A DNA stretch of 64,000 nucleotides from an uncultured bacterium (GTDB lineage: Bacteria > UBP6 > UBA1177 > JAKLFG01): positions 174-64,173 of the forward strand of contig CALMRE010000219.1 of assembly GCA_937871295.1 (NCBI GenBank). The letters are read 5' to 3'. Below the pieces are notes generated by a model that was given only the letters and a program-made list of their open reading frames with translations, had not been told where the DNA came from and made no database searches. Below are positions 926 to 57,082 of this stretch, in pieces. Each line of letters starts with the position of its first letter. Position 1 is the stretch's first letter. The translations under genes were made by a program, and so were the position numbers.

Positions 926-935
926 GGAGAATACG

Positions 936-3314: not shown

Positions 3315-3326
3315 GGGGATGTCCGC

Positions 3327-3614
3327 ATGCCGATGCTCAAGCTTGAACACCGCACCGAAAAGAACCGCACCGAGATATGGAAGTGGATAGAGGAACATCT
3401 CGAGCGGGAACTGAAATACAAGGTCCCGCGCGAAGAGTTCCAGATCGTCGAGTCGGTGAACGACTGCACCTTCATCATCAAGGGGAAGAATGTCGGCGCA
3501 CAGGTCCATGTGGCCGATAAACTCGTTTCGATCGAACTGAACATCCCGCTCCTGTTCGTGCCGTTCAAACCGATGATCGATGCCGGCGTCCGCGACGCGC
3601 TCAAGGAATTATGA
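3327..3614 (+). CDS. Small conserved protein, weak resemblance to the PHA-system small protein family (TIGR02610-like)
   Basis: 95 aa, no signal peptide. The pattern G..V.A.V.V.D..V.IEL.IPLL..P.K..I.....DALK is reminiscent of the putative polyhydroxyalkanoic acid system protein family. The stop overlaps the next start (ATGA). Confidence 0.35.
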   Translation: MPMLKLEHRTEKNRTEIWKWIEEHLERELKYKVPREEFQIVESVNDCTFIIKGKNVGAQVHVADKLVSIELNIPLLFVPFKPMIDAGVRDALKEL

Positions 3615-4240
3615 CCGACTCCTACCGGACCCTCGTCGGGGTCTGCGGTCCCTATGAACTGAAGGAAAAGGCGTCGCGATTCCTCGCCCACGCCGCACCC
3701 GTCGCGACGCTCGAGGAGGCGGAGCGCTTCGTCGTTTCGCTGAAGAAACGCTATCACGACGCCGCCCATGTCGGCTGGGCCTGCCGGTTCGGTGACGGAG
3801 CCGAAAGTTCATTCCGTTACAGCGACGACGGCGAACCGTCCGGGTCGGCCGGTCTGCCGATACATCAGGAATTGGTCCGTGCGGAACTGTTCAACGTGGT
3901 CTGTGCGGTGGTCCGCTATTTCGGCGGGGTGAAACTGGGGACCGGCGGTCTTGCCCGCGCCTTCGGCGGCGCGGCGCGCGGCCTGCTCGATACCGCCGGG
4001 GTACGCACGGTGCTGGTCACTGAGTTGGTTTCACTGAAAAGCCCCTTCGAACTGGTCGGCACGGTGATGCATCTGGCCGGTCAGTTCCCCGGCGCGGCGA
4101 TAGTGTCGCAGGAGTATGATGAAGAGGGGGTGTGCGTCGAAGTGGCGGTGCCGCGGTCGATGGCCGAACGGTTCCGCGACGCCGTCGTCGAGAGAAGCAG
4201 CGGCCGGATACGCATGGGGTCAGGCAACTTGTGCGCCTGA
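3611..4240 (+). CDS. yigZ: IMPACT family protein (YigZ/UPF0029)
   Basis: Contains the DDGEPSGSAG motif and YFGG(V)KLG, typical of IMPACT/YigZ. It is translationally coupled to the upstream small ORF. Confidence 0.8.
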   Translation: MTDSYRTLVGVCGPYELKEKASRFLAHAAPVATLEEAERFVVSLKKRYHDAAHVGWACRFGDGAESSFRYSDDGEPSGSAGLPIHQELVRAELFNVVCAVVRYFGGVKLGTGGLARAFGGAARGLLDTAGVRTVLVTELVSLKSPFELVGTVMHLAGQFPGAAIVSQEYDEEGVCVEVAVPRSMAERFRDAVVERSSGRIRMGSGNLCA

Positions 4241-8158: not shown

Positions 8159-9321
8159 AAGCCAAGATCATCCTGCTTTCGTTGGTTTCGATCGCCCTGG
8201 TGTTCGGGGCGGCTTATCATCTGCTGGTCAACCAGACCAAGCGTCAGATCGTTGAGACCCTCGAGGACAGCGTTTCGCGCGCGACGTCGCTGTACAAATA
8301 CATCAGCGCCGCCGAGACGCTCGACCGCATCCGCAACGCCGAAGAGATCGCGGCGCGCAAGGAGATGCTCGATGTCTTCGATCCGGCGGCCTATGTGGCC
8401 AACCCGGTCGAAGCGGCGCAGAAGATACAGGTAGAACTCAACGTCATCAACAAGTTCTCCGACAACTCCGATGTGCTGTTCATCACCGACACCGCCGGGA
8501 CTGTTCTCGCGAAGAACCTTGACGACACCCTCAAGGGGGTCAGTTTCAAGGAGAATCTCCTCGTCAGCAACGCCATATCGGGTCGCAGTGACGAGGACAT
8601 CTTCGAGATCCTCGGCAAGCGGATGAAGGTCGTGTCGGTCCCCATCCGCAAGGACGGTCGGATCATCGGCACCTTCAACTCGGCCAACATCATCGACTCG
8701 CAGATGGCGAAGGACGATTTCAGCAACCTTACCGAGGAGACCAACGAGGAAAAGGGGAGCAACCCGCTCATGTTCGCCTTTGTCGAGAAGCAGAAGGTGC
8801 TCGGTTCCACCATGCCGCCCGAACTGCACGAGGCGCTCAAACGCTACATGGAAGGGAAGCCCGAGATAGTCGAGAACGCGATAAAGGAATCGGAGCGCAA
8901 GCACGAATTCAGGACGGCACTCAACGGCGAGAAGTTCTATGCCAACATCGCGGTTCATGAACACCTCGGACAGGAAAAACAGGTCTGCTACCTGTTCATC
9001 AGTTCGGTCGACAAGGGACTGCAGTCGCTTTCCGCGAGCCGCAACAACTTCATCTGGATAACCATCATCGTGCTCATCCTCGCCGTCATACTCGGGATCG
9101 TCATCGAGGAACAGTCGCAGGTGCCTATCAGCCGCTTCACCGAAGGGATGATCGAGATCATCCACGGCAACCGCAAGTTCCGTTTCAGCAACGAGGCCGA
9201 AGGGGTGGAGGGGCAGCTCAATCAGAACGCGAATATGATGATCGCGGCGCTCTTGGGCGAACGGGTCCCCGACGAGAAGAACGGGACCGAGAAGATCGGT
9301 ACCATGAAAGCGGAGGAATGA
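8155..9321 (+). CDS. Membrane sensor-like protein: periplasmic Cache-like domain, second TM and HAMP-like helix, no output domain
   Basis: TM1 KIILLSLVSIALVF, a roughly 270-aa periplasmic region, TM2 FIWITIIVLILAVILGIVI, then a short amphipathic segment. Start chosen at MKAKI (SD GGAGAGGAG upstream). Confidence 0.5.
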   Translation: MKAKIILLSLVSIALVFGAAYHLLVNQTKRQIVETLEDSVSRATSLYKYISAAETLDRIRNAEEIAARKEMLDVFDPAAYVANPVEAAQKIQVELNVINKFSDNSDVLFITDTAGTVLAKNLDDTLKGVSFKENLLVSNAISGRSDEDIFEILGKRMKVVSVPIRKDGRIIGTFNSANIIDSQMAKDDFSNLTEETNEEKGSNPLMFAFVEKQKVLGSTMPPELHEALKRYMEGKPEIVENAIKESERKHEFRTALNGEKFYANIAVHEHLGQEKQVCYLFISSVDKGLQSLSASRNNFIWITIIVLILAVILGIVIEEQSQVPISRFTEGMIEIIHGNRKFRFSNEAEGVEGQLNQNANMMIAALLGERVPDEKNGTEKIGTMKAEE

Positions 9322-9325
9322 CCTT

Positions 9326-9826
9326 ATGGCCTTCAACAGCTTCAACAAGATCATGATCCTCGGCCGGCTCGGCCGTGCCCCGGAACTCAAGTATTCGACG
9401 GCGGGGAATCCGATCACCAAGTTCACCGTCGCCACCAACGAACGGCTGAAAGGTACCGGCGGTCAGGCGGAGGAACACACCGAATGGCATAAGGTGGTGG
9501 TGTTCGGCGCGGCGGCCGAGAACTGCTCGAAATTCCTCAAGCAGGGGTCGCTGGTCTTCGTCGAGGGTAAACTGCGGACCCGCAAATACACCGACAAGGA
9601 CAATGTCGAGAAGTACTTCACCGAGGTCATCTCCGACATGGTTCACTTCCTCGACGCCGGCGGCGAGTCGGGCGGCGGAGAAGCGGGCGGCGGCAAAGGA
9701 GCCCCGCGCGGCGAGGAACGCACCTATCAGAAGAACACCCCGAAGGCGAAAGAAGAGGAATTCAATGGCGCCCTCTCCGACGCCATCAAGGGCGCACCCG
9801 ACGGCGACGACGATCTGCCGTTCTAG
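9326..9826 (+). CDS. ssb: Single-stranded DNA-binding protein
   Basis: OB-fold N-terminus, a Gly-rich linker, and the C-terminal acidic tail DDDLPF. Confidence 0.9.
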   Translation: MAFNSFNKIMILGRLGRAPELKYSTAGNPITKFTVATNERLKGTGGQAEEHTEWHKVVVFGAAAENCSKFLKQGSLVFVEGKLRTRKYTDKDNVEKYFTEVISDMVHFLDAGGESGGGEAGGGKGAPRGEERTYQKNTPKAKEEEFNGALSDAIKGAPDGDDDLPF

Positions 9827-14094: not shown

Positions 14095-16134
14095 TTAATT
14101 CTCCGCGGGATCTTTTTTCTTAATTTTATTCTGCATGCGGCTCAGCATGTCGAGCGCCATCTCTTTCTCGGTGAGCCCGCCGGGGACCCCTTCGGTCAGT
14201 CCCGCCTCGGCGAGGAATACCGACGCGGCGGTCATCTCGCTCTTGCCGCGCACCTTGACCATGCGCGGGATGGTGAGGTGGAGCCGTTCGCGGGCGCGGG
14301 TGAAGGCGACATAGCAGAGCCGCCGTTCCTCTTCGATGTTCCCTTCGTCGAGCGCCATCCGGTTGGGAAGGCCGCCCTGATAGAAACCGGGGATGAAGAC
14401 GGCATCGAACTCGAGCCCCTTGGCGCTGTGGGCGGTGATGATGCTGACGCCCCCCTTCTTTTCGTCCTCGTCGGCCGACTGGATGAGCATCGCGGCGTTG
14501 ATGAAATCTATCCAGAATTCCATCGGGCCGAGGTTCTTCTTCTCGGCGCGGTGATAGCTGACGGCGCTCACGAATTCGCGGATGTTCTCGAGCCGAATGC
14601 CTGCTGCCTCGTCGCTCTCGCCGCTTTTGAGGACCGCCTCTTCGATGCCGGTCGCCCGGATAAGCTCTTCGGCAAAGGGGGCCGGTTCAAGCGCGCGGAG
14701 TTTGGCGATGAGTTCGCGGTGCATCGTCCCGAATGCGCCGATGGCACTCTGTTGCGCCGGGGTGAGTATCGTGTAATCGGCGGCCCGCTGGGTGACGCCG
14801 ATGGCGGGCGATTTTTCGACCGTGGCGATCTCGAAGAGTTTCTCGACCGCCGCCGCGCCGATGCCGCGGGCGGGATAGTTGATGATGCGGCGCAGGCTGA
14901 TCTCGTCGTCGGGGTTGACGAGTATCCGCAGGTAGGCGAGGATATCCTTTATCTCTTTATTCTCGAAGAACTTCTGGCCGCCGATGACGCGGTAGGGGAC
15001 GCGCGAGCGGGCGAAGGCCTTTTCGAACGGGAGCGTCTGGGCATTGGTCCGCACCATGACGGCGCAGGCGGTATACTTCTTTCCGGCGACGACGAGCTTC
15101 GCGATCTCACCTGCCACCTGTTCCGCCTCCTCGATCTCGTCAAGCGCGGTGGCGACCGTTATCGGCGTGTAGCCTTCGGCCTTCTTGCGGGCGAAGACCG
15201 TCTTGGGCGAACGGGTCTTGTTGAAGCCGATGAGCCGCCCGGCGGTCGCGACGATCTCGCTCACCGACCGGAAGTTCTCCTCCATCTTGACGATGCGGGT
15301 GCCGGGGAAATCGTCGGCGAATTCGAGAATGTTCTCGACCCGCGCGCCGCGCCAGCTGTAGATGCTCTGGTCGTCGTCGCCCACCGCGCAGACATTGCCG
15401 TGGACCGACGAGAGCTGGCGGATGAGCCGGTACTGCGCCCGGTTGGTGTCCTGATATTCGTCGACCATGAGGTAGCGCCAGTGGGTTGCGTACTTCTTCC
15501 GGAGTTCTTCGTCGCGGTCGAGCAGTTCGAGCGGCTTCATGATGAGATCGTCGAAATCCATCGCCGCCGCCGCCTTGAGCGTCCGCTGGTACGGTTCATA
15601 GAGCCGTCGCGCGACGGTGCGGCGGATGTCGCCGAGGAAGAAACTTTTGTCGTCCAGCAGCGCCGGATCGTTCTTGAGCGACGATACGATGCCGATGAGG
15701 GTGTGGGCCGAATACTGTTCGCGCGATACCCGTTCCTCCGCCATCACCTTCTTCATCAGTTCGACCTGTTCATAGGGTGAATAGATGACGAAGTGGGCGG
15801 GGTAGCCGATCTTCTTGTGCTCCCGTTTCAGTATCTGGAGACCGAGCGCGTGAAAGGTGCAGATGGTGACCCGTTTGGCGGTCGCCGGATCGTCGATGAG
15901 CGTTCCGGCCCGTTCGCGCATCTCTTTGGCCGCCTTGTTGGTGAAGGTGACGGCGAGTATCTCTTCGGGCGGCACCTTTTTCTGGCCGATGAGGTAGGCG
16001 ATGCGGCAGGTGATGACGCGGGTCTTGCCCGATCCGGCGCCGGCGAAGACAAGGAGCGGTCCGTCGGTGGTGGTGACCGCCTCGCGCTGAGCCGCGGAGA
16101 GGCGAAGTTTCGCTATGTCAAAGGAGGTGGCGAT
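14095..16134 (-). CDS. uvrD: UvrD/PcrA/Rep-family ATP-dependent DNA helicase (start codon uncertain)
   Basis: Motifs Ia-VI are present: TFTNKAA, DEYQDTN, VGDDDQSIY, and C-terminal VTxxTxHSAKGLEFDAVF. The Walker A GAGSGKT is encoded upstream of the GTG (15975) used by the ORF track. The frame is open up to the stop of the upstream gene at 16141 with no ATG/GTG/TTG, so the start may be ATC (16134) or ATA (16116). Confidence 0.75.
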   Translation of the reverse strand: MATSFDIAKLRLSAAQREAVTTTDGPLLVFAGAGSGKTRVITCRIAYLIGQKKVPPEEILAVTFTNKAAKEMRERAGTLIDDPATAKRVTICTFHALGLQILKREHKKIGYPAHFVIYSPYEQVELMKKVMAEERVSREQYSAHTLIGIVSSLKNDPALLDDKSFFLGDIRRTVARRLYEPYQRTLKAAAAMDFDDLIMKPLELLDRDEELRKKYATHWRYLMVDEYQDTNRAQYRLIRQLSSVHGNVCAVGDDDQSIYSWRGARVENILEFADDFPGTRIVKMEENFRSVSEIVATAGRLIGFNKTRSPKTVFARKKAEGYTPITVATALDEIEEAEQVAGEIAKLVVAGKKYTACAVMVRTNAQTLPFEKAFARSRVPYRVIGGQKFFENKEIKDILAYLRILVNPDDEISLRRIINYPARGIGAAAVEKLFEIATVEKSPAIGVTQRAADYTILTPAQQSAIGAFGTMHRELIAKLRALEPAPFAEELIRATGIEEAVLKSGESDEAAGIRLENIREFVSAVSYHRAEKKNLGPMEFWIDFINAAMLIQSADEDEKKGGVSIITAHSAKGLEFDAVFIPGFYQGGLPNRMALDEGNIEEERRLCYVAFTRARERLHLTIPRMVKVRGKSEMTAASVFLAEAGLTEGVPGGLTEKEMALDMLSRMQNKIKKKDPAEN

Positions 16135-16140
16135 GGCTGC

Positions 16141-16590
16141 TTACTTGAGACCCTGCAGAAGAACGATGCCGCCGACCATCGCGAAGATCGCGAACGATTC
16201 GACGATGCCGGGGCTGGCGAACGCGAGACCGGCGATGGAGGGTTTCTTGGCGACCGCGAGTATCGCCGACGAACAGGCTTTACCCTGATAGATCGCCGAG
16301 AACATCAGAGCCACGCCGCAGGCGACGCCGATGGCGAACAGCGGTCCGGTCGATTTGCCCGCCTCGGTCAGCGCATTTATCTTGTCGCTCATGAGGATCA
16401 TCAGAACGAAGCCGTAGATGGTCTGCGACGCAGGCATCGCCGAAAGGGCGACGAACAGGCCGTGACCTTCGTCGGTCTTCGACATGATACCGTGCGAGGT
16501 CATGCCGGCAAGGCCGCAGCCGATGGCCGAGCCGCAGGCGGCCAGACCGAGACACAAAATGGGGCCGAACGAACCGAGATCGGAAAACAT
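16141..16590 (-). CDS. V/A-type ATPase proteolipid (c/K subunit)-like membrane protein, orphan
   Basis: 149 aa with four predicted TM helices in two Gly/Ala-rich hairpins. A conserved Glu in the last helix (GIVESFAIF) is typical of duplicated V-type c subunits. SD AAGGAGG upstream. No other ATPase subunit genes lie nearby. Confidence 0.55.
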   Translation of the reverse strand: MFSDLGSFGPILCLGLAACGSAIGCGLAGMTSHGIMSKTDEGHGLFVALSAMPASQTIYGFVLMILMSDKINALTEAGKSTGPLFAIGVACGVALMFSAIYQGKACSSAILAVAKKPSIAGLAFASPGIVESFAIFAMVGGIVLLQGLK

Positions 16591-16755
16591 AGGGTCCTCC
16601 TTTTATTTAGGAATGATCATCCGCATATCAAAAGAGCCGCGCCCATCATACTCGGAACAAAAAGAAATGCAAAAAACGGGAGGAGCTCGTTTCTTCTTGC
16701 ATTTTCGAGCTCTTCCGCCTATCATCGCCCGATTGATCCGGTAGGAGGTGTAGCG

Positions 16756-17349
16756 ATGCGGAACATGCTGTTGGTGCTCGCGATCGTCGTGACGGCGATG
16801 AGCTTTGCCTGCAAGAAGGAAACGGTGATCGAACGGGCGGCAGACCCGGCGCTGGGACAGGAGCTTATCGCCGTCATCGAGAAAGGCGACGAAGCGGCGG
16901 CCTTCGAACTGATGAAGAAGGGGGCCGATATCAACGCGCGGCAGAAGGGGACCGCCTACACTCCGTATGTGATCGCGGCGAAGAACTGCCTGACCACGAC
17001 GGTCCGCCGGATCGAGGAGCGGGGCGCCGACCTGACGCTTGAGGTCTCGTCGGCCAATACGGTCGTGAAGTCGGCCTACCTCAACGCGGCCATGGCGGGC
17101 TGTCTGGATACCGTGCGTTACTTTGTCGAGGAGAAGCATCTCGACATCAATACGCGTCATCATGTCTGGAACGAGACGATACTCCACAAGGCGGTGCAGA
17201 AACATAACGGATCGCTTGCCCGCTATGCTTTGGAGCGGGGGGTGGACCGGAACATCCGGGACAACAATCAGCGCACGGCGCTCGATCTGGCCAAAGAGAT
17301 CGGGGCGACCGAGGTAGCGGCGCTCATAGAGAAGTATCCGGTGAAGTGA
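16756..17349 (+). CDS. Ankyrin-repeat lipoprotein
   Basis: Lipobox AMSFAC. Three to four ankyrin repeats are present (GADINARQ..., TPYVIAAKN, NETILHKAVQKHN, RTALDLAKE). SD GGAGG upstream of ATG 16756; the ORF-track N-terminal extension was rejected. Confidence 0.65.
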   Translation: MRNMLLVLAIVVTAMSFACKKETVIERAADPALGQELIAVIEKGDEAAAFELMKKGADINARQKGTAYTPYVIAAKNCLTTTVRRIEERGADLTLEVSSANTVVKSAYLNAAMAGCLDTVRYFVEEKHLDINTRHHVWNETILHKAVQKHNGSLARYALERGVDRNIRDNNQRTALDLAKEIGATEVAALIEKYPVK

Positions 17350-29394: not shown

Positions 29395-32166
29395 CTATTT
29401 CTCGTCGATGATGCTCAGAAATATATCGGCGCCGCCCCGGTTCTGATTGCCGTCGAGATTCCCTTCGGTATATCCGCCGACGAAGATGCGCCCGTCGGGA
29501 GCGACGACAAGGGCGGTGCTCTGATCGTTCAGCGGTGAACCCCACTGCTCGGCCCACAACTGCGTACCGGCGTCATTCATCTTCATCAGGAAGACAGCGC
29601 TTGTGCCGAAACTCGATAGGTTGGGGTCCAGCCGTTCCCGCGCATGGCCCGTCACGAAGATATCTCCGTTCGCGTTCATGGCGATCGATCGGGCGTCGGT
29701 CCATTCTTTCGTATCCCGGAGTTCGGTCCAGACCTCTTCCCCGTCTGGCGAGAATTTCTTCACCAGCGCCTGCCGCATCGATCTCGCGGCGCCGTCCACG
29801 GTATAGTCGCCACTGCTCCCCGCTACATACACGAAACCGTCGGCGCCTATCGCGATCGCTCTGCCGATGTCAATTCTCGGCGTGCCCCACTGCACGGTCC
29901 ACTCCTTGATGCCGGCCGGGGTGAATTTGGTAATGAATCCATCGGCGCACAGGAGGGGATAACTTACTATTCCCCCATGCATGCCCTCGCCGGTCATCAC
30001 ACAGTCGGCGCCCTTATTCGTCTGGCCATCCAAGTCGCCGACCGTCTCGCCGGTCACAAAGATGTTCCCCGTCTGATCCACGGTCACGCCGTACGCGACG
30101 GCATAAGGGGTCGAATAGGCCGTGGCCGATTCGCTCTCCCATTCCTCGGTCCATACCTCCGCGCCGGCGGCGGTGATCTTCGTGAGGAACACATGACCGC
30201 TCGGATAGTTCACCGAGCCCGCCATCGATCCGGCGACATAGACATTGCCTTCGCCGTCAACGGCGACCGCACGACCGACATCGTCGTCATATCCGGCGGG
30301 ATCGTCGCCGGTGCCCCACTGGCGGGTCCACACCGTCCCGCCATCGTTCTTTCGCTTGATCAGGAATATATCGGCCTTTCCTGCGTTGCTCTCGCCATCG
30401 AATACCCCCGCGGTGTACCCGGTCAGATAGACATTTCCCGCTGTATCGACCGCCACCGCAGTCGCGACATCGTTCTCCGCCGTTCCCGCTTGCTTCATCC
30501 AATGAAGAAGACCATCGCCATTCGATTTGGCAAGGAAGGTATCGACGCCGCCCGCCGACTGGTTTCCGGCGAGCGCTCCGTTGGTGCTCCCCGCCATGAA
30601 AAGGGCGCCATCGGGAGCAACGGCGATCGCATTCAGTTGATCGGCGGCCTTGTTCCCGCTGAAAAGAGCGCTCCATTCCGTTACGCCGGTAGTTTCCCAG
30701 AGACCGATGCGCAGATCGTGGTTTGCCGAGCCGGTATCCTGATAGCCGGTCACCGCTATCGCCCCCTCCTCCGATACGGCTATGCCGCGCGGAAAGGGGA
30801 TGCCGCTATCGACGCTCCATAACTCCTCTCCGGTAAGATCGTAGCCTTTGAGCGTCGGGCCGACCGCCAAGAACAGATCGGCGCCATCCGAGCCGAGTCC
30901 ACCGCACAGATCATCACCGGGCAGGCCCTCTTGGCGTGTCCAGAGGATATTCCCCGCCGCATCGAGCCGCGTCAGGAACACATCGGCGCAGTAGTTATAC
31001 CCGCAATCTCCCCCCGCATTGGTAGTACCCTCAAAAGCGCCGTCGGTCATCCCCGCAACGAAGAGGTCGCCCTCCTGCGTGATAAAAAGGCCCTTCGCGA
31101 TATCGTCGGAATCATGCAACCCCCACTGCACGGTGCTGATCCGCTCACCGTCGGCGGTGAAGCGGGAAAGAAAAAGGTCGGAGCAGGAGGTGCAGGCCAC
31201 CTGTCCCGATCCGAAGGGGAATTCGGTACAACTGCAGCGTCCCCCGGCATGGGTGTTGCCGTCGAGGTCGCCGGTCGTACTGCCGGCAACGATAATATCG
31301 CCGCCCGGTGCAACCGCAACTGCATAGCCCCGCGCGCTTGTTTCACTCCACACCACGGACCATACCTCATTGCCGTCGGTATCCCACTTAGCGAGCAGTG
31401 GCTTACCGCCGGAATGTCCCGTTATGATAAGATTTCCTTCATTATCGAGCGTGATCGCGAAGGCGAAGTCCATACTGGCGCCGCCCCACAGTTTCGTCCA
31501 CAACTTGGTGCCGTCCTCATGCCACTTGGTAACGAAAATATCTTTGGTGCCGCCCCCATACGGCTCCCCGTCCAGCGGACCGGCGGTGACACCGGCGACG
31601 AAGATATCGCCCTGCATATCGACCGTGATCGCAAGCGGCCAATCGTCTTTTTCCGTCCCCCATTGACGGCTCCAGATCAGCGTGCCGTCGGGCGCCACTT
31701 TCAGGAGGATGCTGTCGGTTTCTCCCGCATGCTGATGGCAATCGAACGATGAATCGGTGCTTCCGGCGATATAGAGGGCACCTGAAGGAGCGAAGGCGAC
31801 CGCATAGCCCGAATCGTAGCCGAGAGAAGATTCTCCGCCCCACTGCCGGGTCAGCCGCACGATATGATCGCTCTCGACCGGCTCCGGTTCCGATTCCGGG
31901 CCACAGCCACCCTGTTCCGGCAGGAGATCTTCGTCAGGAAGGACCACCGCCTCCACATCGACGGGAGATTCCCCGTCAACAAGAATTTCCTCATCCGGCA
32001 CGAACAACGCATCTTCATCCGACGGCGGAAACGCGTCATCGGATATCGGGATGTCGTCGCCGTCCGCCACCGTTAGATCATCCTTGGGGCTGCTTACCGG
32101 TGACTTGTCACAGGCGCAGGCCGCTAGGAGAATGATCAACAGCGATGCCGTAATGCTCCTTTTCAT
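29395..32166 (-). CDS. Large SBBP (beta-propeller repeat) lipoprotein
   Basis: Lipobox LLAACAC. More than 15 repeats of about 45 aa, of the type G...DIF[VL]xK(W)...DG..LWT.QWG..., characteristic of the SBBP beta-propeller repeat (PF06739). Confidence 0.7.
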   Translation of the reverse strand: MKRSITASLLIILLAACACDKSPVSSPKDDLTVADGDDIPISDDAFPPSDEDALFVPDEEILVDGESPVDVEAVVLPDEDLLPEQGGCGPESEPEPVESDHIVRLTRQWGGESSLGYDSGYAVAFAPSGALYIAGSTDSSFDCHQHAGETDSILLKVAPDGTLIWSRQWGTEKDDWPLAITVDMQGDIFVAGVTAGPLDGEPYGGGTKDIFVTKWHEDGTKLWTKLWGGASMDFAFAITLDNEGNLIITGHSGGKPLLAKWDTDGNEVWSVVWSETSARGYAVAVAPGGDIIVAGSTTGDLDGNTHAGGRCSCTEFPFGSGQVACTSCSDLFLSRFTADGERISTVQWGLHDSDDIAKGLFITQEGDLFVAGMTDGAFEGTTNAGGDCGYNYCADVFLTRLDAAGNILWTRQEGLPGDDLCGGLGSDGADLFLAVGPTLKGYDLTGEELWSVDSGIPFPRGIAVSEEGAIAVTGYQDTGSANHDLRIGLWETTGVTEWSALFSGNKAADQLNAIAVAPDGALFMAGSTNGALAGNQSAGGVDTFLAKSNGDGLLHWMKQAGTAENDVATAVAVDTAGNVYLTGYTAGVFDGESNAGKADIFLIKRKNDGGTVWTRQWGTGDDPAGYDDDVGRAVAVDGEGNVYVAGSMAGSVNYPSGHVFLTKITAAGAEVWTEEWESESATAYSTPYAVAYGVTVDQTGNIFVTGETVGDLDGQTNKGADCVMTGEGMHGGIVSYPLLCADGFITKFTPAGIKEWTVQWGTPRIDIGRAIAIGADGFVYVAGSSGDYTVDGAARSMRQALVKKFSPDGEEVWTELRDTKEWTDARSIAMNANGDIFVTGHARERLDPNLSSFGTSAVFLMKMNDAGTQLWAEQWGSPLNDQSTALVVAPDGRIFVGGYTEGNLDGNQNRGGADIFLSIIDEK

Positions 32167-47209: not shown

Positions 47210-47776
47210 TTACTGACACTTCTCTGGGGTCTGCGCCGCTAATGAGTCGCCGCTGATACCGGCATTGGGCAGTTGCGCTTTAATATCGGAAAATTGTTGT
47301 TCGTCGGTGATACAGTTCCCGTTTACCGAAAGTGCCGTTATTTTCTTGCAGGAATATAGCGGACTAAGATCCGTTAAGTAGTTGTCCATAAGGTATAGCG
47401 CGTTCAACTCTGTCAGTCCCGACAACGGTTCGAGGTCTTTTATCTTATTGTTGTTAAGTTTAAGGTTGGTGAGTTTCGTCAGCGTGCGGAGTGGTTCGAG
47501 CGATTCGATCTGGTTGTCGCTCATGCCGACCCAATCAACATTAGGCATGTTTCCTATCCCTCTGATATCTCTGATCGTTCCCGCGCCACAACCTATCATC
47601 TTGACCTTGCTGTACTTGTCCGGATCGTTAGGGTCTATAAGATCGTTATTGTAATAGTCTTGAAGTGTTTCTTCGACGCAGGCTTTGAACGCCGGATCGG
47701 GGAACATCTCGCCGTTGCCGCCGTCATCGCACCCAACCGCGCCGATGAACACAACCGCCAGCAGAAAGTTCCTCAT
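47210..47776 (-). CDS. Internalin-like leucine-rich-repeat lipoprotein (low-GC gene)
   Basis: Lipobox AVGCDDGG; LRR_4-type repeats LxxLxxLxLxxNxIxDLxPL. Local GC is about 47% against a background of about 65%. Confidence 0.65.
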   Translation of the reverse strand: MRNFLLAVVFIGAVGCDDGGNGEMFPDPAFKACVEETLQDYYNNDLIDPNDPDKYSKVKMIGCGAGTIRDIRGIGNMPNVDWVGMSDNQIESLEPLRTLTKLTNLKLNNNKIKDLEPLSGLTELNALYLMDNYLTDLSPLYSCKKITALSVNGNCITDEQQFSDIKAQLPNAGISGDSLAAQTPEKCQ

Positions 47777-47789
47777 GGTAGCCGTGGCC

Positions 47790-48032
47790 TTACGCCGCGA
47801 CATAGGACCGACCGACAGCCTTGAGCCCGACCGGCTTTTTCTGGAACAGCATCTTGCGGAACGCCTCGAACCGCTTCACCTGCGCCGGCGTGTAGAGCCG
47901 TTCACCGCATTTCTCGCAGACCTCGGCGACCACCTTGAGGACGGCGGTGTCGTTGCCGCCCTTCACGATCTTTTCAACCTCTTTCTTCACCACGGCGCCG
48001 CCGCAGGTCGGACATTTTTTGAATGGAAGCAT
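47790..48032 (-). CDS. YgiT-type zinc-finger protein (MqsA-N-like), putative antitoxin
   Basis: MLPFKKCPTCGG...VCEKCGE gives the CxxC...CxxC zinc ribbon of the zf-YgiT family, about 80 aa. It starts 2 nt after the DUF4258 gene. The long track ORF at 47790..48398 was rejected as a fusion artefact. Confidence 0.6.
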   Translation of the reverse strand: MLPFKKCPTCGGAVVKKEVEKIVKGGNDTAVLKVVAEVCEKCGERLYTPAQVKRFEAFRKMLFQKKPVGLKAVGRSYVAA

Positions 48033-48034
48033 GA

Positions 48035-48346
48035 CTATTTCCTCCGCTTCTTGTTCTCTATCCACCGCTTGGGATCGGGGCGGTACACTGTTATGAGTAC
48101 CGCGTACCCGTTCTCTGCATTGTATCCCCACACCGAATGTATCGGCTCCTCGCGGTAGTTCCTGCCCGCGATAAGGATACTCGGATAGGGCTTGTCCTTC
48201 GGGTACTCTTCGATGATCTCGCCGTGCAGGACCGACTCGAAGATATCCTCGTACAAAAGCCGGTCGTTCTGAGCCTCGTCGTCGGCGTGTTCGGTGACCC
48301 GGTAATGTTCCTTGGCGATGGCGTCCAAAATGTCGGCGAGTTTCAT
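48035..48346 (-). CDS. DUF4258-family protein, putative toxin partner of the YgiT zinc-finger protein
   Basis: 103 aa, pattern ...HA.DEA..D.L...DI...L..GEIIEEYP.D.PYPS.LI.G...... typical of DUF4258. DUF4258 is commonly paired with zf-YgiT. Confidence 0.55.
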   Translation of the reverse strand: MKLADILDAIAKEHYRVTEHADDEAQNDRLLYEDIFESVLHGEIIEEYPKDKPYPSILIAGRNYREEPIHSVWGYNAENGYAVLITVYRPDPKRWIENKKRRK

Positions 48347-48423
48347 CGGTTCCTCTCCCGGTTCCGGCCCATTGTACCAACGGACAAGATGATGTCAAGA
48401 CGAGGCGTTAGTGCTTCGTGCGG

Positions 48424-52063: not shown

Positions 52064-52483
52064 ATGAAAAAGATACTGCTTATCTGCGCGGTCGTCGCGG
52101 CCCTCGTTATGGTGTCGTGTACGGTCGAGAAGAGAACGGTCACCGCGAAGCACAAAAAGAACGAGACCACCTTCTACTGGGCCTACTACGAGTGGGAAGA
52201 AAGTTCCTTCTTCTTCACTTGGGTCCATGATGACTGGTCGAAGGTCAAGCGCTGCAACCTGCGCGACGACAACACCTTCCAGTGTGTCGAAGAGCAGGAG
52301 GCGATCGCCGTCATCAACCCGCAGTGGACCGGTGAAGTGAACCAGTCCAGCGGTGAGCCGGCCTCGGCCGAAGCGGCCCCGGCCGAAGAAGCGGCCCCCG
52401 CCGAAGCGGCTCCGGCCGAAGCGGCCCCCGCGGAAGAGGCTCCCGCCGAAGCTCCGGCTGAGGAAGCGCCCGCCGCCGAGTGA
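52064..52483 (+). CDS. Small lipoprotein, paralog 4 of 4, with C-terminal (AAPAE)n acidic repeat tail
   Basis: Lipobox MVSC; KRCNLRDDNTFQC. The tail is EAAPAEEAAPAEAAPAEAAPAEEAPAEAPAEEAPAAE. SD GAGGGAG. Confidence 0.55.
   Translation: MKKILLICAVVAALVMVSCTVEKRTVTAKHKKNETTFYWAYYEWEESSFFFTWVHDDWSKVKRCNLRDDNTFQCVEEQEAIAVINPQWTGEVNQSSGEPASAEAAPAEEAAPAEAAPAEAAPAEEAPAEAPAEEAPAAE
52360..52482 (+). repeat. 15-bp tandem repeat (gccgaagcggccccc-type) encoding (AAPAE)n
   Basis: Seven to eight imperfect units are visible in the DNA. Confidence 0.55.
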
Positions 52484-52508
52484 TCGCGCGGTAAGATTCT
52501 GCTTTTAG

Positions 52509-52537
52509 GACCCCGCTTTCGAGCGGGGTCTTTTTTT
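52509..52537 (+). terminator. Rho-independent terminator after the lipoprotein array
   Basis: gaccccgc-tttcga-gcggggtc hairpin (8-bp GC stem) followed by TTTTTTT. Confidence 0.6.
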
Positions 52538-53567
52538 ATTGAATCATTCCAACCGCGTCGAGGTCGAAGCCGGCGCTCTCATGGGTCGGGCAGGGGTCGT
52601 AGATCGGGCGGCCGCCGTTGTCGGTCATAGAGCCGTCGCCCCGGACATCGACGACACGGACATGGGTGACGGCCGACAGGTTGACCGTCGCATCCTTCCC
52701 GGCAAGCGTCGCGAGATCGAACGGGACGCCCCATCCGGCGCGATACTTCCCGGCAAGGCCGTCGATGAGCGCCGGATCGAGCGTGCCGTATTCGGAGACC
52801 GGCTCGGTGCCCAGATAGGTCGCGCCAAACCGGACGAAGGTAACGCCGTCGCTCGACACCTCCACAAAGGCAAGCTCCAGAAAATCGTCTGAAAAAGAGT
52901 TCTCGAACACGACGATATCGGGTCCGTCGCCGTCGGTCAGCGGTTCGTCGAAGGTCAGCGTGATACTGCCGCCGTCGCCCAGAGAGACGACCGCGGTCGC
53001 GTTCCCTTCGGCCGGACCGAGCGCCTTGTCGGTATCCTTCCACTCCTCGGTCAGATTGTCGCCCCGGACCACTTCGGCGATGCCGGAGGCCCATGCGGTA
53101 ATGCGCGGGTCATCCTTCGCGACGGCGGGAGAGCCGGTGGTGCCGGCTGCTCCCGCGAAGGTCGTGGGGGTCAGTTTGGTCCACCCGAAGCCGTTGCACC
53201 CGGTGTCGAGTTTCTCGGCGTCGGCCGGGACGGCCGCCTCGGCCTCGGCCGCCGAATCCTTGTCGTAGACCGTCTGGCAGAAGTAGAGGTCGTCGCCGCT
53301 CCACGCCCAGTCCATCCGGCTCCACTTGCCGGGGTTGAAACTTTTCACGGCGTCGTTCTGCGCCACGACAAAGTCCTTTTTGTTGTCGTACTTCGTGATG
53401 TGAAATATCCCCATATCGCCCTGATCCCACAGCGTCGCGGTGATGACATGGGTATACTCGTAATCGTCGCTGTAGGTGCCGATGATCTCGATAGGTCCCT
53501 GTTGTTTCTCCTCGTCGCAGGCGAACAGGAACAGGAACATGAAAAGAGCGGTGAACAGGTTCTTCAT
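52536..53567 (-). CDS. Surface lipoprotein, hypothetical (second lipoprotein downstream of btuB)
   Basis: Lipobox LFLFACDEE; a beta-rich, Asp/Gly-rich C-terminal half. Confidence 0.45.
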   Translation of the reverse strand: MKNLFTALFMFLFLFACDEEKQQGPIEIIGTYSDDYEYTHVITATLWDQGDMGIFHITKYDNKKDFVVAQNDAVKSFNPGKWSRMDWAWSGDDLYFCQTVYDKDSAAEAEAAVPADAEKLDTGCNGFGWTKLTPTTFAGAAGTTGSPAVAKDDPRITAWASGIAEVVRGDNLTEEWKDTDKALGPAEGNATAVVSLGDGGSITLTFDEPLTDGDGPDIVVFENSFSDDFLELAFVEVSSDGVTFVRFGATYLGTEPVSEYGTLDPALIDGLAGKYRAGWGVPFDLATLAGKDATVNLSAVTHVRVVDVRGDGSMTDNGGRPIYDPCPTHESAGFDLDAVGMIQ

Positions 53568-53588
53568 CCGTTTCCTCCTATAAAGCGC

Positions 53589-54818
53589 TTATGGTTCGTG
53601 TATCCAGAGACGGAGCGCCGCGGGGGCGCCGTCGAAGGGTATCGTTGTTATCGTGCCGGTCGCGGTGTCGAGTGCGTTGAGGCGGCTGCGCGGAGAGCCA
53701 TCCACGAATATCTGATCGAAGAAATAGACTCGTCCGGTGAAGGGGCTCTGGTCTATCGGTATCGCGGCGAAGGCGTTAATGTCGCTCACGATACGCCGCA
53801 CCGTGCCGTCGCGTTCGAGTACCTGCAGGTGCCCCTGCCAGTCGCCGTCCATCGCGGTGAAGTAGATGCGGCCGTCGGCAAGCACCGCCAGATCGCCCAT
53901 CTTCACATCGAGCGGCGAATGCTCGTCGGTCGTTTCGTGCAGGATGACGGAGACAGTGCCGCTGAAAAGATCGACCCGGACAATGCCGCCGTCGCGTGCC
54001 TGATAGGACCCGGAGCACGAGACGAAAAGCTGGTCGGGCGAAAGGAGCGGGTTGACCGCCAGCTTCGAGGTGGGATCGGCAAGCGGCAGGTCGATGGGGG
54101 AAAGCGGTGTCCCCTCGGCGGTATGACGGGCAAGCCGTCCGCCGCGCGAAAGCCAGTCGGGACCGAGCAGTTGGAGCGCCGTCACCGTCCGTCCGCCCGT
54201 TCGCAAAAGCCCCGCGGGGGCCGGATCGGTGCCGTCGGGGGCGAAGGCGGCGAGCGGTATCTCGCCCGCCGATTTCCCGGAGCCGTCGAACAGAAGCAGG
54301 CGGTCGTACTGGTTCGCCGAAACGATGTAGCGCGTCCCGTCCCAGAGGGCATCGTAGAAATTGGCGTAGCGGTCGACCGGCGAGGCGATGGTGGTGTAAC
54401 GCGGATCGCCGTCGCGCGGTTCGTAGACCCAGACGGTGTCGGCGCCGTCGCGGCCGACGACCATGAGCCGGTCGGCGGCGGTCGCGAGCGTCAGGTCGGT
54501 CCCCTCGGGGCCTCCCAGCGGCGTCGGGAAGGTCAGTTCACGCAGGTCGTCCAGCCGTTCCCCCGGCGCGAGGAGGATATGGCCGGAGCGCGGGGCGTCG
54601 TAGCCGCCGGTCGTCGCGATGACCAGATCGGCGGCGACACAGGAACCGAGATAGGGATGGGTTCCGGCGGGGCAGACGGTATCGTCGTCGGGAACCGTGC
54701 TGTCGGTCAAGGCGGTATAGTCGGTCGTCGCGGCCATATCGATGTCGGCGGGCAGTTCGGTAAGGTCCGGAGCGCAAGCGATCGGCAGAAAGGCCATGAG
54801 GAACAGTAGCCGTTTCAT
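53589..54818 (-). CDS. Beta-propeller-like surface lipoprotein immediately downstream of btuB (BtuG-like by position)
   Basis: Lipobox LPIACAPD; repeated beta-strand/DG motifs. SD GGAGGGGG upstream of the ATG. Its start overlaps the TBDR stop. The track ORF extension to 55280 was rejected. Confidence 0.5.
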   Translation of the reverse strand: MKRLLFLMAFLPIACAPDLTELPADIDMAATTDYTALTDSTVPDDDTVCPAGTHPYLGSCVAADLVIATTGGYDAPRSGHILLAPGERLDDLRELTFPTPLGGPEGTDLTLATAADRLMVVGRDGADTVWVYEPRDGDPRYTTIASPVDRYANFYDALWDGTRYIVSANQYDRLLLFDGSGKSAGEIPLAAFAPDGTDPAPAGLLRTGGRTVTALQLLGPDWLSRGGRLARHTAEGTPLSPIDLPLADPTSKLAVNPLLSPDQLFVSCSGSYQARDGGIVRVDLFSGTVSVILHETTDEHSPLDVKMGDLAVLADGRIYFTAMDGDWQGHLQVLERDGTVRRIVSDINAFAAIPIDQSPFTGRVYFFDQIFVDGSPRSRLNALDTATGTITTIPFDGAPAALRLWIHEP

Positions 54819-56860
54819 ACGCCCCCTCCGATGTCGAGGGCAAGGCCGAGATAGAGCGATACCCCGGCGGTGCCGTAGCCTTTCACCAGTTCGTACCGGT
54901 CGTCGAAGAGATTCTCGATGCGGCCGAAGATACGGCAGAGCGGCGCGGCGCGCACCGATACGGCGAGCGACCCGATGACGGCGGTCGGGAGCGTCACGGT
55001 GACCGGTTCGTACGGATAGCGGTACTCGATATCGCGGCGCGGGCCGATGACCGTCACCCCCAAGTTCGCGTTGAAGATCGGGTCGGGATTCCAGTCTGTC
55101 CAGAGGTTGGCGAGGTGGGCGGGACGCCGCAGGACCGGCCGGGTGTCGCGCCAGTCGCGGCCGTCGTAGGTGACCACGGCGAAGGCGTCGGTGGCGGTGT
55201 AGGTGTAGTTGGCGGTGATCGTGAGGGTCCGGTGGGGCCGCGCCGAAAGGGCCGTCTCGATGCCCCACGCCGTCAGCCACCCGATGTTCTGATAGCGTCC
55301 GCAGAGCATCCCGTCACAGCCGTAGGAGAACTCTATCGCGCTGCGTGTCTCCTGATAAAAGCCGTTCACTTCGATGAGAAGCTGGCGCTCCCACAGCCGT
55401 TGTTCGATACCGCCGTCGAGGGCATTGGTCTCTTCGGGACGGAGGAATTCCGAGCCGTACTTGCTGTAGAGCTGGAAGAGACTCGGCGGCTTGAAGGCGC
55501 TCCCGACGCTCGCCCGCAGAGTCGTGTCGCTCGGGGCGATGAGGTAGGCCGCCTCCACACTGTAGGTGCCGCGCGGCAGCTTCTTCAGATATTCGCTTGC
55601 GAGCAGTACCGGCGAGCCGGTCGTGTCGAGGGTCGTGTGATGGAGACGGTACAGGAACAGGTCGAACCGGCCGCCCGCCGTGATGGAGAGGCCGTCGAGC
55701 GGCGTCACGGTGTCCTGCAGATAAAGCCCGAGGTCAAAGGAACTTTTCCGGTCAATAGCAAGGCCGGTGACGGGCCGCGTGCGGTCGTTTTTCTGATCGG
55801 CGGCCCCCTGTCCGGCGGTGAATACCGCGCCGGTCCGGAGACGATTGTAGGGGATCGCGGTGATGTCGTTACGCCATGCCGCCTCGATGGTGTCGCCGAT
55901 AAAGAAGATGCGCGAGAACCCCCATTCGTCCTGCGGGCCGTTGGGTTGATTGCGGTCGTCGCAGGAACGGCGGGCGACGGAGAGTTCGAAGGTCTGGCCC
56001 CATGCACCGTCAAAAAGAGAACCATCTGCCGCGAAATGTCCCAGCAGGCGGTCCGAGGAGAAGATGCGGTCGGGGTCGTCGCGCCAGCGCCCCGGTCCGT
56101 TGTCGATATCGGCGTCGGCGCCGATGTAACGGAGCGCTGCCGAAAACCGCCACCGGTCGCCCGCCGCGACGCCGAACCGTCCGGCGACGGTCAGAGTCCG
56201 TGCACGGTCCTCCTCGCTGTTGCCGTCGTGTTCGGCCGCCGCCGAATAGCCGCCGGTGTCGAGATAAGAAGCGTTCATCGCGTAGTCGCCGCGTGCCGTG
56301 CCGCCGCGGAGTCCCGCCGACAGCCGCAAATGGTTAACCGCGATGTCGCCGGGGGCGAGATCGACCATGCCGCTTTCGGCGGAAAGTGAAAGACGGGCCG
56401 GACCGCCGCCCCCCCGCGAGGTGATGAGGACCGCGCCGCTCATCGCGTCGGGACCGAAGATGACCGCCTGCGGGCCGCGCAGTATCTCAATGCGCTCGAT
56501 GCCGTCGGCCATGATGTCGGACAGATCGGCGGCGTTCTCGACCGAAAAGGGGTCGTTGAGCCGCACCCCGTCGAGGAGTACCAGCGCGTGACCGCCTTTC
56601 CCTCCGCGTATGAAAAGGCTCGTCAGCCCGCCCGCACCGCCGGAGGTCGAGATGTGGATGCCGGGCGTTTCGCGCAGGAGTTCGGCGACGGTATCTTTTT
56701 GTTTCTTCTCTATCTGTTTTTCGGTGATGACGGTGGTGGCGCGGGCGGTATCATCGCCCTCCCGCTTTTCGCTCACGACGGTGCGATAGGGCTCTTCGGC
56801 GGCATGAAGGGCACAAAAGGAGATAAGGGAGAATAACAGGATCGCCGTACGCACAGGCAT
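54815..56860 (-). CDS. btuB: TonB-dependent outer-membrane receptor, BtuB-like (cobalamin riboswitch-controlled)
   Basis: Signal peptide; plug domain (TVITEKQIEKKQ, IRGG); a 22-strand barrel; a cobalamin riboswitch in the 5' leader. Start at MPVRTAILL. Confidence 0.8.
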   Translation of the reverse strand: MPVRTAILLFSLISFCALHAAEEPYRTVVSEKREGDDTARATTVITEKQIEKKQKDTVAELLRETPGIHISTSGGAGGLTSLFIRGGKGGHALVLLDGVRLNDPFSVENAADLSDIMADGIERIEILRGPQAVIFGPDAMSGAVLITSRGGGGPARLSLSAESGMVDLAPGDIAVNHLRLSAGLRGGTARGDYAMNASYLDTGGYSAAAEHDGNSEEDRARTLTVAGRFGVAAGDRWRFSAALRYIGADADIDNGPGRWRDDPDRIFSSDRLLGHFAADGSLFDGAWGQTFELSVARRSCDDRNQPNGPQDEWGFSRIFFIGDTIEAAWRNDITAIPYNRLRTGAVFTAGQGAADQKNDRTRPVTGLAIDRKSSFDLGLYLQDTVTPLDGLSITAGGRFDLFLYRLHHTTLDTTGSPVLLASEYLKKLPRGTYSVEAAYLIAPSDTTLRASVGSAFKPPSLFQLYSKYGSEFLRPEETNALDGGIEQRLWERQLLIEVNGFYQETRSAIEFSYGCDGMLCGRYQNIGWLTAWGIETALSARPHRTLTITANYTYTATDAFAVVTYDGRDWRDTRPVLRRPAHLANLWTDWNPDPIFNANLGVTVIGPRRDIEYRYPYEPVTVTLPTAVIGSLAVSVRAAPLCRIFGRIENLFDDRYELVKGYGTAGVSLYLGLALDIGGGV

Positions 56861-56894
56861 TGTCCCTCCGCGGGGTCGCACTGTTCACGATTCC

Positions 56895-57035
56895 GCTTTC
56901 GGATATTCTGGCTTGCGGTCAACCGGAGCGCCGCCCCTTCCCGCCGTACGGCAGTGGGCTATTGCGGCGTCCGTCGCGCTTACAGCTGCGGGACAGCACC
57001 GGATTCACACCGGATTTCCCCGTCTGCGGACACAG
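56895..57035 (-). promoter_or_regulatory. Cobalamin (AdoCbl) riboswitch in the btuB 5' leader, with upstream TTGACA-17-TACTAA promoter (about 57040-57072)
   Basis: The minus-strand RNA reads GGGGAAAUCCGGUGUGAAUCCGGUGCUGUCCCGCAGCUGUAAGCG...AGCCCACUGCCGUACGGCGGGAAGG. This closely parallels the E. coli btuB leader (GGGAAUCCAGUGCGAAUCUGGAGCUGACGCGCAGCGGUAAGG...CACUGCC...GGGAAG) and the B12-box consensus GCCACUG. Confidence 0.7.
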
Positions 57036-57082
57036 GTCGTTAGTATCACGATGATGCAGAGATGTCAAGGAAGGGTGGGCGG

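Follow-up and report, generated by a model that had tools for sequence, protein, structure and literature searches.

A riboswitch-headed operon with a BtuB-like receptor and two candidate B12-capture lipoproteins in an uncultured bacterium outside the Bacteroidota

The window analysed here is a 64 kb stretch of DNA from an uncultured bacterium (contig CALMRE010000219.1), and all positions are those of the window. On its minus strand, a cobalamin riboswitch precedes the gene of a BtuB-like TonB-dependent receptor and two lipoprotein genes, which we named LP1 and LP2. We consider it likely that these elements form a self-contained, B12-repressed outer-membrane corrinoid-uptake cassette that would work like BtuB-BtuG-BtuH of Bacteroides. 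This reading draws on the riboswitch, on the gene order and the coupling of receptor and LP1, on the lipoprotein signals, on the modelled folds and the known structures closest to them, and on a cross-phylum linkage of the LP2 domain and of LP1-type propellers with riboswitches, TonB receptors and DUF4465 proteins, which gives independent support for LP1 and LP2 being B12-related. The features of the locus are as follows (nt, nucleotides; aa, amino acids).

57040..57068, minus strand: putative sigma-70-type promoter read from the sequence (TTGACA at 57068-57063, 17-nt spacer, TACTAA at 57045-57040)
56901..57021, minus strand: cobalamin riboswitch aptamer, RF00174
56861..56900, minus strand: expression platform, a 40-nt linker with the block ACCCCGCGGAGGGA and the Shine-Dalgarno sequence GGAGGG (56869-56864)
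54815..56860, minus strand: BtuB-like TonB-dependent receptor, 681 aa, ATG at 56860, signal peptide MPVRTAILLFSLISFCALHA, Pfam Plug and TonB_dep_Rec_b-barrel
53589..54818, minus strand: LP1, a 409-aa lipoprotein that begins MKRLLFLMAFLPIAC, lipobox ..PIAC15, predicted BtuG-like beta-propeller
52536-53567, minus strand: LP2, whole gene, 343 aa, begins MKNLFTALFMFLFLFAC, lipobox LFAC17
53163..53567, minus strand: LP2 signal peptide, lipobox and small N-terminal beta domain (aa ~18-135; possibly lipocalin-like)
52536..53162 including the stop codon, minus strand: LP2 C-terminal jelly-roll domain (aa ~136-343), BtuH-like by predicted fold
52507..52532, no strand assigned: G+C-rich hairpin of 11 pairs right after the LP2 stop, at the end of the operon, with a T-run on the plus strand

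Riboswitch, receptor and gene order

The original prediction, made from the letters alone, had placed an adenosylcobalamin riboswitch in the leader of the receptor gene. The Rfam scan agrees: RF00174 matches the leader, 41 nt ahead of the receptor ATG, with 83.1 bits (E 5.6e-19), far over its gathering score of 31.5, and it is the sole Rfam family matched across the 64 kb. The alignment takes in the GGGAA..GGUG..CCCGC..CUGUAA core, GCCACUG and the AGCCAG B12 box (B12-box region AAGCCAGAAUAUCC), and spans model positions 45-169 of 189 only. A TTGACA-17-TACTAA promoter had been proposed in front of it. The sequence is present, with a TG two bases 5' of the TACTAA -10 hexamer, and the -35 TTGAC can be aligned across four leaders, that of the window and those of three divergent relatives; a sigma-70 consensus scanner does not list the promoter because its -10 hexamer ends in A, with no T at position 6. 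On sequence grounds the promoter is plausible, if unproven, and its -10 element is weak.

Between the aptamer and the receptor ATG, neither a reading of the sequence nor a terminator scan found a terminator-like hairpin with a U-run, and minimum-free-energy folding of the leader was uninformative (z-score 0.12). The ACCCCGCGGAGGGA block differs by one substitution among the leaders of the window and three relatives (L001, L007 and L009), despite their unequal aptamer lengths. This conserved Shine-Dalgarno block, together with the absence of a terminator, suggests that the riboswitch would act by translational control at the ribosome-binding site. Spirochaetales-like relatives have short cobalamin-riboswitch variants that score 33-39 bits, barely over threshold (L005:7243-9602, L007:4633-4745, L009:1624-1737, L012:4553-4613, L011:4571-4631). 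In the alignment these variants are missing the 3' stretch that starts at around GCCACUG and takes in the B12 box, yet they have the same Shine-Dalgarno block.

The receptor displays the architecture of a TonB-dependent receptor, with a plug (PF07715, 92.6 bits) and a barrel (PF00593, 102.8 bits), and a putative TonB box, YRTVVSE, was picked out by eye. Its top NCBIfam model is TIGR01779, TonB-B12, with 203 bits against an equivalog cut-off of 599.7, while the SusC/RagA model, with a cut-off of 368, gives 79 bits. Among solved structures E. coli BtuB matches best, with 133 bits, the next receptor reaching 64 bits, and no Bacteroides BtuB is found among the PDB matches at E<=1e-5. The protein is therefore best described from these scores as BtuB-like rather than as a certified BtuB equivalog, and its control by a cobalamin riboswitch points to cobalamin as its likely substrate.

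The three genes are tightly packed. As the original prediction had stated, stop and start overlap at the first junction, where the receptor TGA and the LP1 ATG share an ATGA (GTATGAAA, LP1 start 54818). LP2, the third gene of the cassette, starts 21 nt past LP1 and is preceded by GGAGG.

Predicted folds of the two lipoproteins

Two lipoproteins had been proposed downstream of the receptor, the first of them beta-propeller-like and both without an annotation-level motif, and each of these points was upheld. In addition to the lipobox of LP2 (LFAC17), that of LP1 is present with an invariant Cys15 (13 homologues); 12 LP1 homologues were obtained by word-index search, all from unclassified 'bacterium' metagenome-assembled genomes (MAGs). 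No Pfam or NCBIfam model matches LP1 over threshold, SGL alone reaching 21 bits (cut-off 26), and LP2 has no Pfam match even at E<=10.

The AlphaFold model of LP1 (predicted local distance difference test, pLDDT, 82.5; predicted template modelling score, pTM, 0.84) is all-beta with about 29 strands, and this strand count fits a seven-bladed propeller. When the model was searched against the PDB with Foldseek, ranks 1-5 were all BtuG, namely BtuG2 (8BN0, 8BMZ), BtuG3 (8OKV) and BtuG1 (8BLW_B), with E-values of 2.8e-11 to 1.9e-10 and an identity of 10-14%. The target-normalised template modelling (TM) score is 0.70-0.75 for the four propeller-only BtuG2/BtuG3 chains and 0.41 for the 626-aa BtuG1 chain. 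Below BtuG in the ranking come AztD, lactonase-like propellers, XusB and BtuK1. Like BtuG, LP1 is a lipoprotein encoded beside a btuB-type gene in a riboswitch-controlled operon. A marginal sequence match of the LP1 profile A1 (positions 41-129) to the ferric anguibactin-binding protein FatB (PDB 21ZD residues 151-244, E 0.0017, 20 bits) is probably due to chance.

The LP2 model (pLDDT 92.1) falls into two parts, a small beta domain at the N-terminus and a jelly roll at the C-terminus. Among the structural matches of LP2, two BtuH domains rank over all lectin folds, with more residues aligned. One of the two structures, 7BIZ, is BtuH2 bound to B12, and the other, BtuG1, has a fused BtuH domain (PMC10404256, PMC8941943). 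The best and second-best matches of LP2 are thus both BtuH domains, and no other BtuH domain has been solved. By its model, the C-terminal globular domain would have the BtuH fold, and LP2, like BtuH, is a lipoprotein co-operonic with a btuB-type gene. The LP2 family has invariant residues at N223, E231, D307, D311, D316, D324, S331 and D335. In BtuH2, the Na/Ca site is formed by N399, E406, D522, S582 and E584, and the corrin is contacted by Q333, H476 and Y510 (PMC13616437). The order of the invariant LP2 residues resembles that of the BtuH2 Na/Ca site, a similarity that is only suggestive.

The analogy with BtuG and BtuH, which the original prediction drew from the architecture of the locus, thus appears to hold at the level of the modelled folds; the comparison of structures supports it, whereas that of sequences does not, neither lipoprotein being a member of BtuG (PF16819), BtuH or BtuJ (DUF4465). 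The contrary case envisaged at that time, a SusD-like glycan binder, finds no echo in the data: neither lipoprotein has a SusD/RagB match in Pfam or NCBIfam, and both models are all-beta.

Two other assignments for LP2 were tried and dropped. LP2 (aa 54-126 and 212-258) and its homologue P0024 show a very weak NCBIfam similarity to the Leptospira LIC13354 exoprotein and the LIC_13355 lipoprotein, whose genes are neighbours in L. interrogans. A published account of LIC_13355 presents it as an adhesin that binds laminin and plasminogen (PMC11891782). The lead was abandoned, the matches lying far under threshold (E 0.008-0.06 for LIC13355) and the literature giving no link to B12. LP2 as a divergent DUF4465/BtuJ protein was also rejected: PF14717 gives no match at E<=10, and the GTPAYF/NTPAY loop is absent from LP2. 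Searched against Pfam and NCBIfam at permissive thresholds, the LP2 homologues yielded chance-level or accessory-domain matches only.

Occurrence in other genomes and surroundings in the window

Conservation of the neighbourhood, which the original prediction had proposed to examine, was observed: the same three-gene cassette with a riboswitch is found, between different flanking genes, in relatives (L001-L004, L007 and L009). In L001-L004 an orthologous leader (RF00174, 87.9 bits) lies upstream of the cassette, while L007 (GCA_022703485.1, 38.5 bits) and L009 (a Spirochaetales MAG, 38.7 bits) have the same gene order behind a shorter riboswitch, with an LP2 that is ~50% identical and an LP1 recovered at E 1e-57 to 1e-61. 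The nearest cassettes in the genome collection belong to Spirochaetales MAGs. The cassette of P0005, whose LP1 is 73% identical to that of the window, has 4-nt overlaps at both junctions, different flanks and an RF00174 match of 87.9 bits upstream. P0024, a 533-aa stand-alone LP2 homologue (L005), is encoded directly behind a short riboswitch variant and adjoins a CobA/BtuR adenosyltransferase gene.

An iterated hidden Markov model built from the 13 LP1 sequences and run over the fetched loci reaches Myxococcota (L015, L021, L031, L041), a gammaproteobacterium (L022) and L086. The lipobox cysteine is present in all LP1-family members, and a riboswitch was found at nine of the ten distinct LP1-type loci, the window being counted, with an adjacent TonB receptor at most of them; these loci span Spirochaetales-like, Myxococcota and Proteobacteria genomes. 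In a Myxococcota MAG (L031:2438-5648, JBCDFZ010000044), a single 985-aa open reading frame (ORF) that directly follows RF00174 encodes a fusion, with an LP1-type propeller at aa 307-670 (E 1e-20) and an LP2 domain at aa 715-984 (E 8e-113). A comparable fusion of a propeller and a BtuH domain is BtuG1/BtuGH of B. thetaiotaomicron (PMC10404256, PMC13616437). A second, stand-alone LP1-type propeller gene lies just upstream of the Myxococcota fusion (1004-2374). The genes of a TonB receptor and an LP1-type propeller form an operon at L086:5685-9530(-), behind the second cobalamin riboswitch of that locus (9303-9530, minus strand, 88.5 bits). This operon faces a riboswitch-controlled LP2-domain operon, so that two B12-controlled units stand tail to tail.

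The LP2 C-terminal domain is far more widespread. A word-index search with LP2 gave >7,800 matches, nearly all of them on the C-terminal 200 residues and with 50-60% identity. An exhaustive phmmer search of 1.84 billion representative proteins retrieved 2,044 clusters, defined at 50% identity, with a cut-off of E<=1e-3, and 736 of them also pass E<=1e-30. The suggestion that the lipoproteins are new in this lineage is therefore too narrow for LP2, whose C-terminal domain belongs to a large multi-phylum family. A scan of species-representative genomes detected at least 580 LP2-domain loci, and the best 80 were taken for the counts that follow. They belong to at least seven major lineages, comprising Spirochaetales, Desulfobacterota, Myxococcota, Planctomycetota, Verrucomicrobiota, Kiritimatiellia and Beta/Gammaproteobacteria. 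All 80 were scanned with Rfam, which detected a same-strand upstream RF00174 at 56 (70%), and at every one of these 56 the LP2-domain gene is the first to fourth in a co-directional chain behind the riboswitch. Only two opposite-strand riboswitches were seen, one of them at the head of a convergent operon that encodes a receptor and an LP1-type propeller. A TonB receptor directly adjoins the LP2-domain gene at about 47 of the 80 loci.

Besides receptors, two partners are the most frequent at the riboswitch-positive loci. A DUF4465/PF14717 protein of 250-300 aa (162-168 bits) is encoded in the same operon at 28 of the 56, and B12 binding has been demonstrated experimentally for eight members of that family (PMC13398666). 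A prepilin-like N_methyl protein is present at 17 of the 56, in Planctomycetota and Verrucomicrobiota. We lean, with less assurance than for the cassette itself, towards the view that the ~200-aa LP2 C-terminal domain represents an unannotated corrinoid-binding family of ~2,000 clusters and at least seven lineages, a remote structural cousin of BtuH and distinct from DUF4465. Together with the LP1-type propellers, such a family would make capture relays of the BtuB-G-H-J style ancient and widespread rather than a speciality of gut Bacteroidota.

Further variation was noted among the LP2-domain proteins. A conserved AGPYAPAAGQPGSTA motif often marks the start of LP2-type domains. The stand-alone proteins outside the spirochaete-like group (L013-L087) usually have a type-I signal peptide followed by a strikingly conserved AGP[YF]APAAGQPGSTAI.KDDPAF..W; the LP2 of the window has a degenerate form of this mature N-terminal motif, FAGAAGTTGSPAVAKDDPRITAW. 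A PEP-CTERM sorting signal ends 11 of 85 LP2-domain proteins. In seven Planctomycetota loci (L025, L026, L030, L033, L043, L048 and L060; Pirellulaceae, Rubripirellula, Novipirellula) giant proteins of ~1,100 to >1,900 aa carry the LP2-type domain as their N-terminal module and are preceded by a cobalamin riboswitch and a ~290-aa prepilin-type (N_methyl) protein; a TonB receptor was not found in the fetched flanks. These loci hint at a different, receptor-independent B12 acquisition. In a Deltaproteobacteria MAG (L032:1935-3615, JAGGTJ010000118), two same-strand cobalamin riboswitches (1935-2119, 117 bits; 3228-3429, 78 bits) are followed, ~110 nt past the second, by RF03167, a c-di-GMP-I-GGC riboswitch (3538-3615; 63.3 bits, where the gathering score is 59). 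The three lie 5' of a DUF4465 gene and an LP2-domain gene, an arrangement that suggests tandem control by B12 and cyclic di-GMP.

In the window, the operon ends at the hairpin 52507-52532. On the operon strand it reads as A7-hairpin, and how efficiently it would terminate the minus-strand operon is uncertain; with its T-run on the plus strand, the hairpin may mainly terminate a convergent transcript. The only plus-strand ORF that ends there is 52064-52483(+), of 139 aa and without a family match. The flanking genes encode, among others, a glycogen synthase, a nitronate monooxygenase-like protein, an epimerase, a MiaB-like radical-SAM protein and a histidine/phenylalanine ammonia-lyase, none of them B12-related. 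No gene of btuFCD, cob/cbi or the B12-dependent enzymes was found in a scan of ORFs between 45.6 and 62.5 kb, nor among 10 longer ORFs scanned elsewhere in the window. With no B12-related gene in its flanks, the cassette is therefore self-contained. Other genes of the window, unrelated to the cassette, encode a small leucine-rich-repeat protein overlapping a zinc-ribbon/MqsA-like one (47210-48398, minus strand), a 923-aa SBBP beta-propeller-repeat protein (29395-32166, minus strand), an ankyrin-repeat protein (15793-17349, plus strand) and a LonB/LonC-like protease (903-3314, plus strand).

Proposed mechanism, alternatives and comparison with known systems

In the mechanism that we propose, cobalamin at high intracellular levels would bind the RF00174 aptamer, and the Shine-Dalgarno block would probably become occluded, resulting in translational repression. 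When B12 is scarce, the BtuB-type transporter, LP1 and LP2 would be made. LP1, a lipid-anchored propeller translationally coupled to the transporter, would sit on it as a BtuG-like lid with a high affinity for corrinoids. LP2 would be exposed at the cell surface, capture corrinoids with its C-terminal jelly roll and pass them on, as BtuH does.

Several observations weigh against this reading. The receptor scores far under the BtuB equivalog cut-offs, not only for TIGR01779 but also for NF007926 (147 versus 836). LP1 does not match PF16819, the BtuG Pfam family, at E<=10, and its LP1-type relatives have no such match at E<=0.01; phmmer and family-profile searches of all PDB chains with LP1 recovered no BtuG, BtuH, BtuJ or BtuK at E<=10. 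Likewise, LP2 and a 56-sequence profile of its family gave chance matches only in the PDB at E<=10, 7BIZ and 8BLW_B not being among them, and hhalign of the LP2 C-terminal domain against 28 DUF4465 neighbours returned a probability of 0.04%. With no homology to BtuG or BtuH at the sequence level, common ancestry cannot be distinguished from convergence. Both folds, beta-propeller and jelly roll, are common, and the margins in the structural comparisons are moderate, those of LP1 over AztD, the lactonase-like propellers and XusB being modest; both structures are predictions, and the LP1 alignment holds 13 sequences. Finally, the DNA fetched for 24 of the 80 LP2-domain loci shows no riboswitch on the same strand. 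The gene chain runs off the edge of that DNA in at least 10 of these 24, and the 70% is therefore a lower bound.

Among the alternatives, LP1 could be a periplasmic or outer-membrane metallochaperone or enzyme, AztD- or lactonase-like, that handles cobalt or modifies corrinoids instead of serving as a BtuG-type lid. AztD (6CK1, 6N01) and putative 6-phosphogluconolactonases do stand just under BtuG in the Foldseek list (E ~3e-9), and the sub-threshold SGL match and the weak match of profile A1 to the anguibactin-binding protein would fit the same idea. We nevertheless hold it to be improbable: the top five structural matches are all BtuG, with the BtuG2/BtuG3 chains having the highest target-normalised TM; an invariant lipobox and a gene that overlaps that of the receptor by 4 nt are in keeping with a stoichiometric partner in the outer membrane; an LP1-type propeller fused to an LP2 domain has its parallel in BtuGH; and control is by a cobalamin riboswitch, with no metal sensor. 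It could also be that the receptor alone is B12-related, LP2 being a CBM32/discoidin-like lectin or adhesin and LP1 a generic propeller, both merely co-transcribed and serving in glycan binding or host adhesion. This we regard as highly improbable. The two BtuH domains outrank the lectin folds as matches of LP2 and align over more residues, the LIC13355 similarity lies far under threshold, and a riboswitch at 56 of 80 loci in at least seven lineages, with DUF4465 proteins and TonB receptors in the same operons, is hard to square with a glycan binder.

A cassette tuned to another corrinoid, for example cobinamide or a cobamide that carries another lower ligand, with the lipoproteins setting specificity and not merely affinity, is to us the least probable of the readings considered here. 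There is precedent for it in B. thetaiotaomicron, where BtuG paralogues differ >1000-fold in cobinamide affinity and BtuB paralogues in cobamide preference (PMC13616437), and the short riboswitch variants of related cassettes, with scores of 35-39 bits only, hint at different effector classes. The aptamer of the window, by contrast, is a high-scoring RF00174 match, if over part of the model only. The present data do not discriminate between ligands, and the proposal would refine the B12-uptake cassette rather than form a true alternative to it.

Competition for vitamin B12 shapes microbial communities. High-affinity surface capture by BtuG, BtuH and BtuJ has been characterised almost solely in gut Bacteroides, with only DUF4465/BtuJ recently extended to other phyla; a 2026 paper describes DUF4465-based scavenging as reaching many phyla and as accompanied by other unnamed families (PMC13398666). 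A riboswitch-controlled BtuB with surface B12-binding lipoproteins is thus already known in Bacteroides. What is new here is a large LP2-domain family that is strongly linked to riboswitches, and a propeller-domain fusion that parallels the known one; by analogy, two unannotated sequence families may also take BtuG-like and BtuH-like roles outside the Bacteroidota. This B12-capture strategy probably extends well beyond gut Bacteroidota. The locus and its relatives offer testable candidates for BtuG-like and BtuH-like binders that databases have overlooked, and a candidate function for a family of ~2,000 clusters that is absent from Pfam and now annotated as 'hypothetical'. Such an assignment would improve the prediction of B12 scavenging and auxotrophy from environmental genomes and supply new scaffolds for B12 capture; it also raises the question of whether these folds were recruited to corrinoid binding once or repeatedly.

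The closest known system is BtuB-BtuG of Bacteroides thetaiotaomicron (loci 1-3; 8BLW, 8BMZ, 8BN0, 8OKV), with which the window shares a cobalamin riboswitch, a TonB-dependent BtuB-type receptor and then a lipoprotein, a predicted propeller in the window. In contrast to that system, LP1 is a BtuG match by fold at low identity, without a PF16819 or HMMER match to BtuG, the solved receptor nearest to that of the window is BtuB of E. coli, and the cassette is without btuFCD. The host also differs, being a deep non-Bacteroidota lineage with a TTGACA -35 and a strong Shine-Dalgarno sequence, which to our knowledge are not signals of the Bacteroidota type. For the aspartyl-tRNA synthetase (AspRS) encoded in the window, matches of 56% identity or more come from unclassified 'bacterium' MAGs only, and past these the identity falls to ~52% in a range of phyla. 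With BtuH (BtuH2/BT1956, 7BIZ; the domain of BtuG1/BtuGH), LP2 has no detectable sequence homology; its domain is ~200 aa long as against ~250 aa in BtuH, and its N-terminal module is a small beta domain where BtuH has PKD/Ig repeats. Published BtuH homologues are essentially confined to gut Bacteroidota (PMC8941943, PMC13616437), whereas the LP2-domain family is multi-phylum, with seven lineages from Spirochaetales to Beta/Gammaproteobacteria.

DUF4465/BtuJ (PF14717; 9FCT, 9I2L, 9HMU) resembles the LP2 domain as a secreted or lipid-anchored jelly roll found at B12 transporter loci of several phyla. The two are separate families: BtuJ has a conserved HI-loop motif, GTPAYF/NTPAY (PMC13398666), the BtuJ structures are outside the top structural matches of LP2, and the cassette of the window is without a DUF4465 gene. 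In E. coli, as in the window, an RF00174 aptamer with a B12 box precedes a BtuB-type receptor and control is likely exerted at the ribosome-binding site; the E. coli btuB operon has no accessory lipoproteins, while the window has two that are co-transcribed, one of them translationally coupled. Finally, XusA-XusB and SusC-SusD of Bacteroides also pair a TonB-dependent transporter with a surface lipoprotein, and XusB (9HQK), a propeller lipoprotein, is among the matches of LP1. The window differs from them in that its regulator is B12-specific, BtuG outranks XusB for LP1, and the cassette has neither a SusD-like alpha-helical protein nor a SusC-type receptor.

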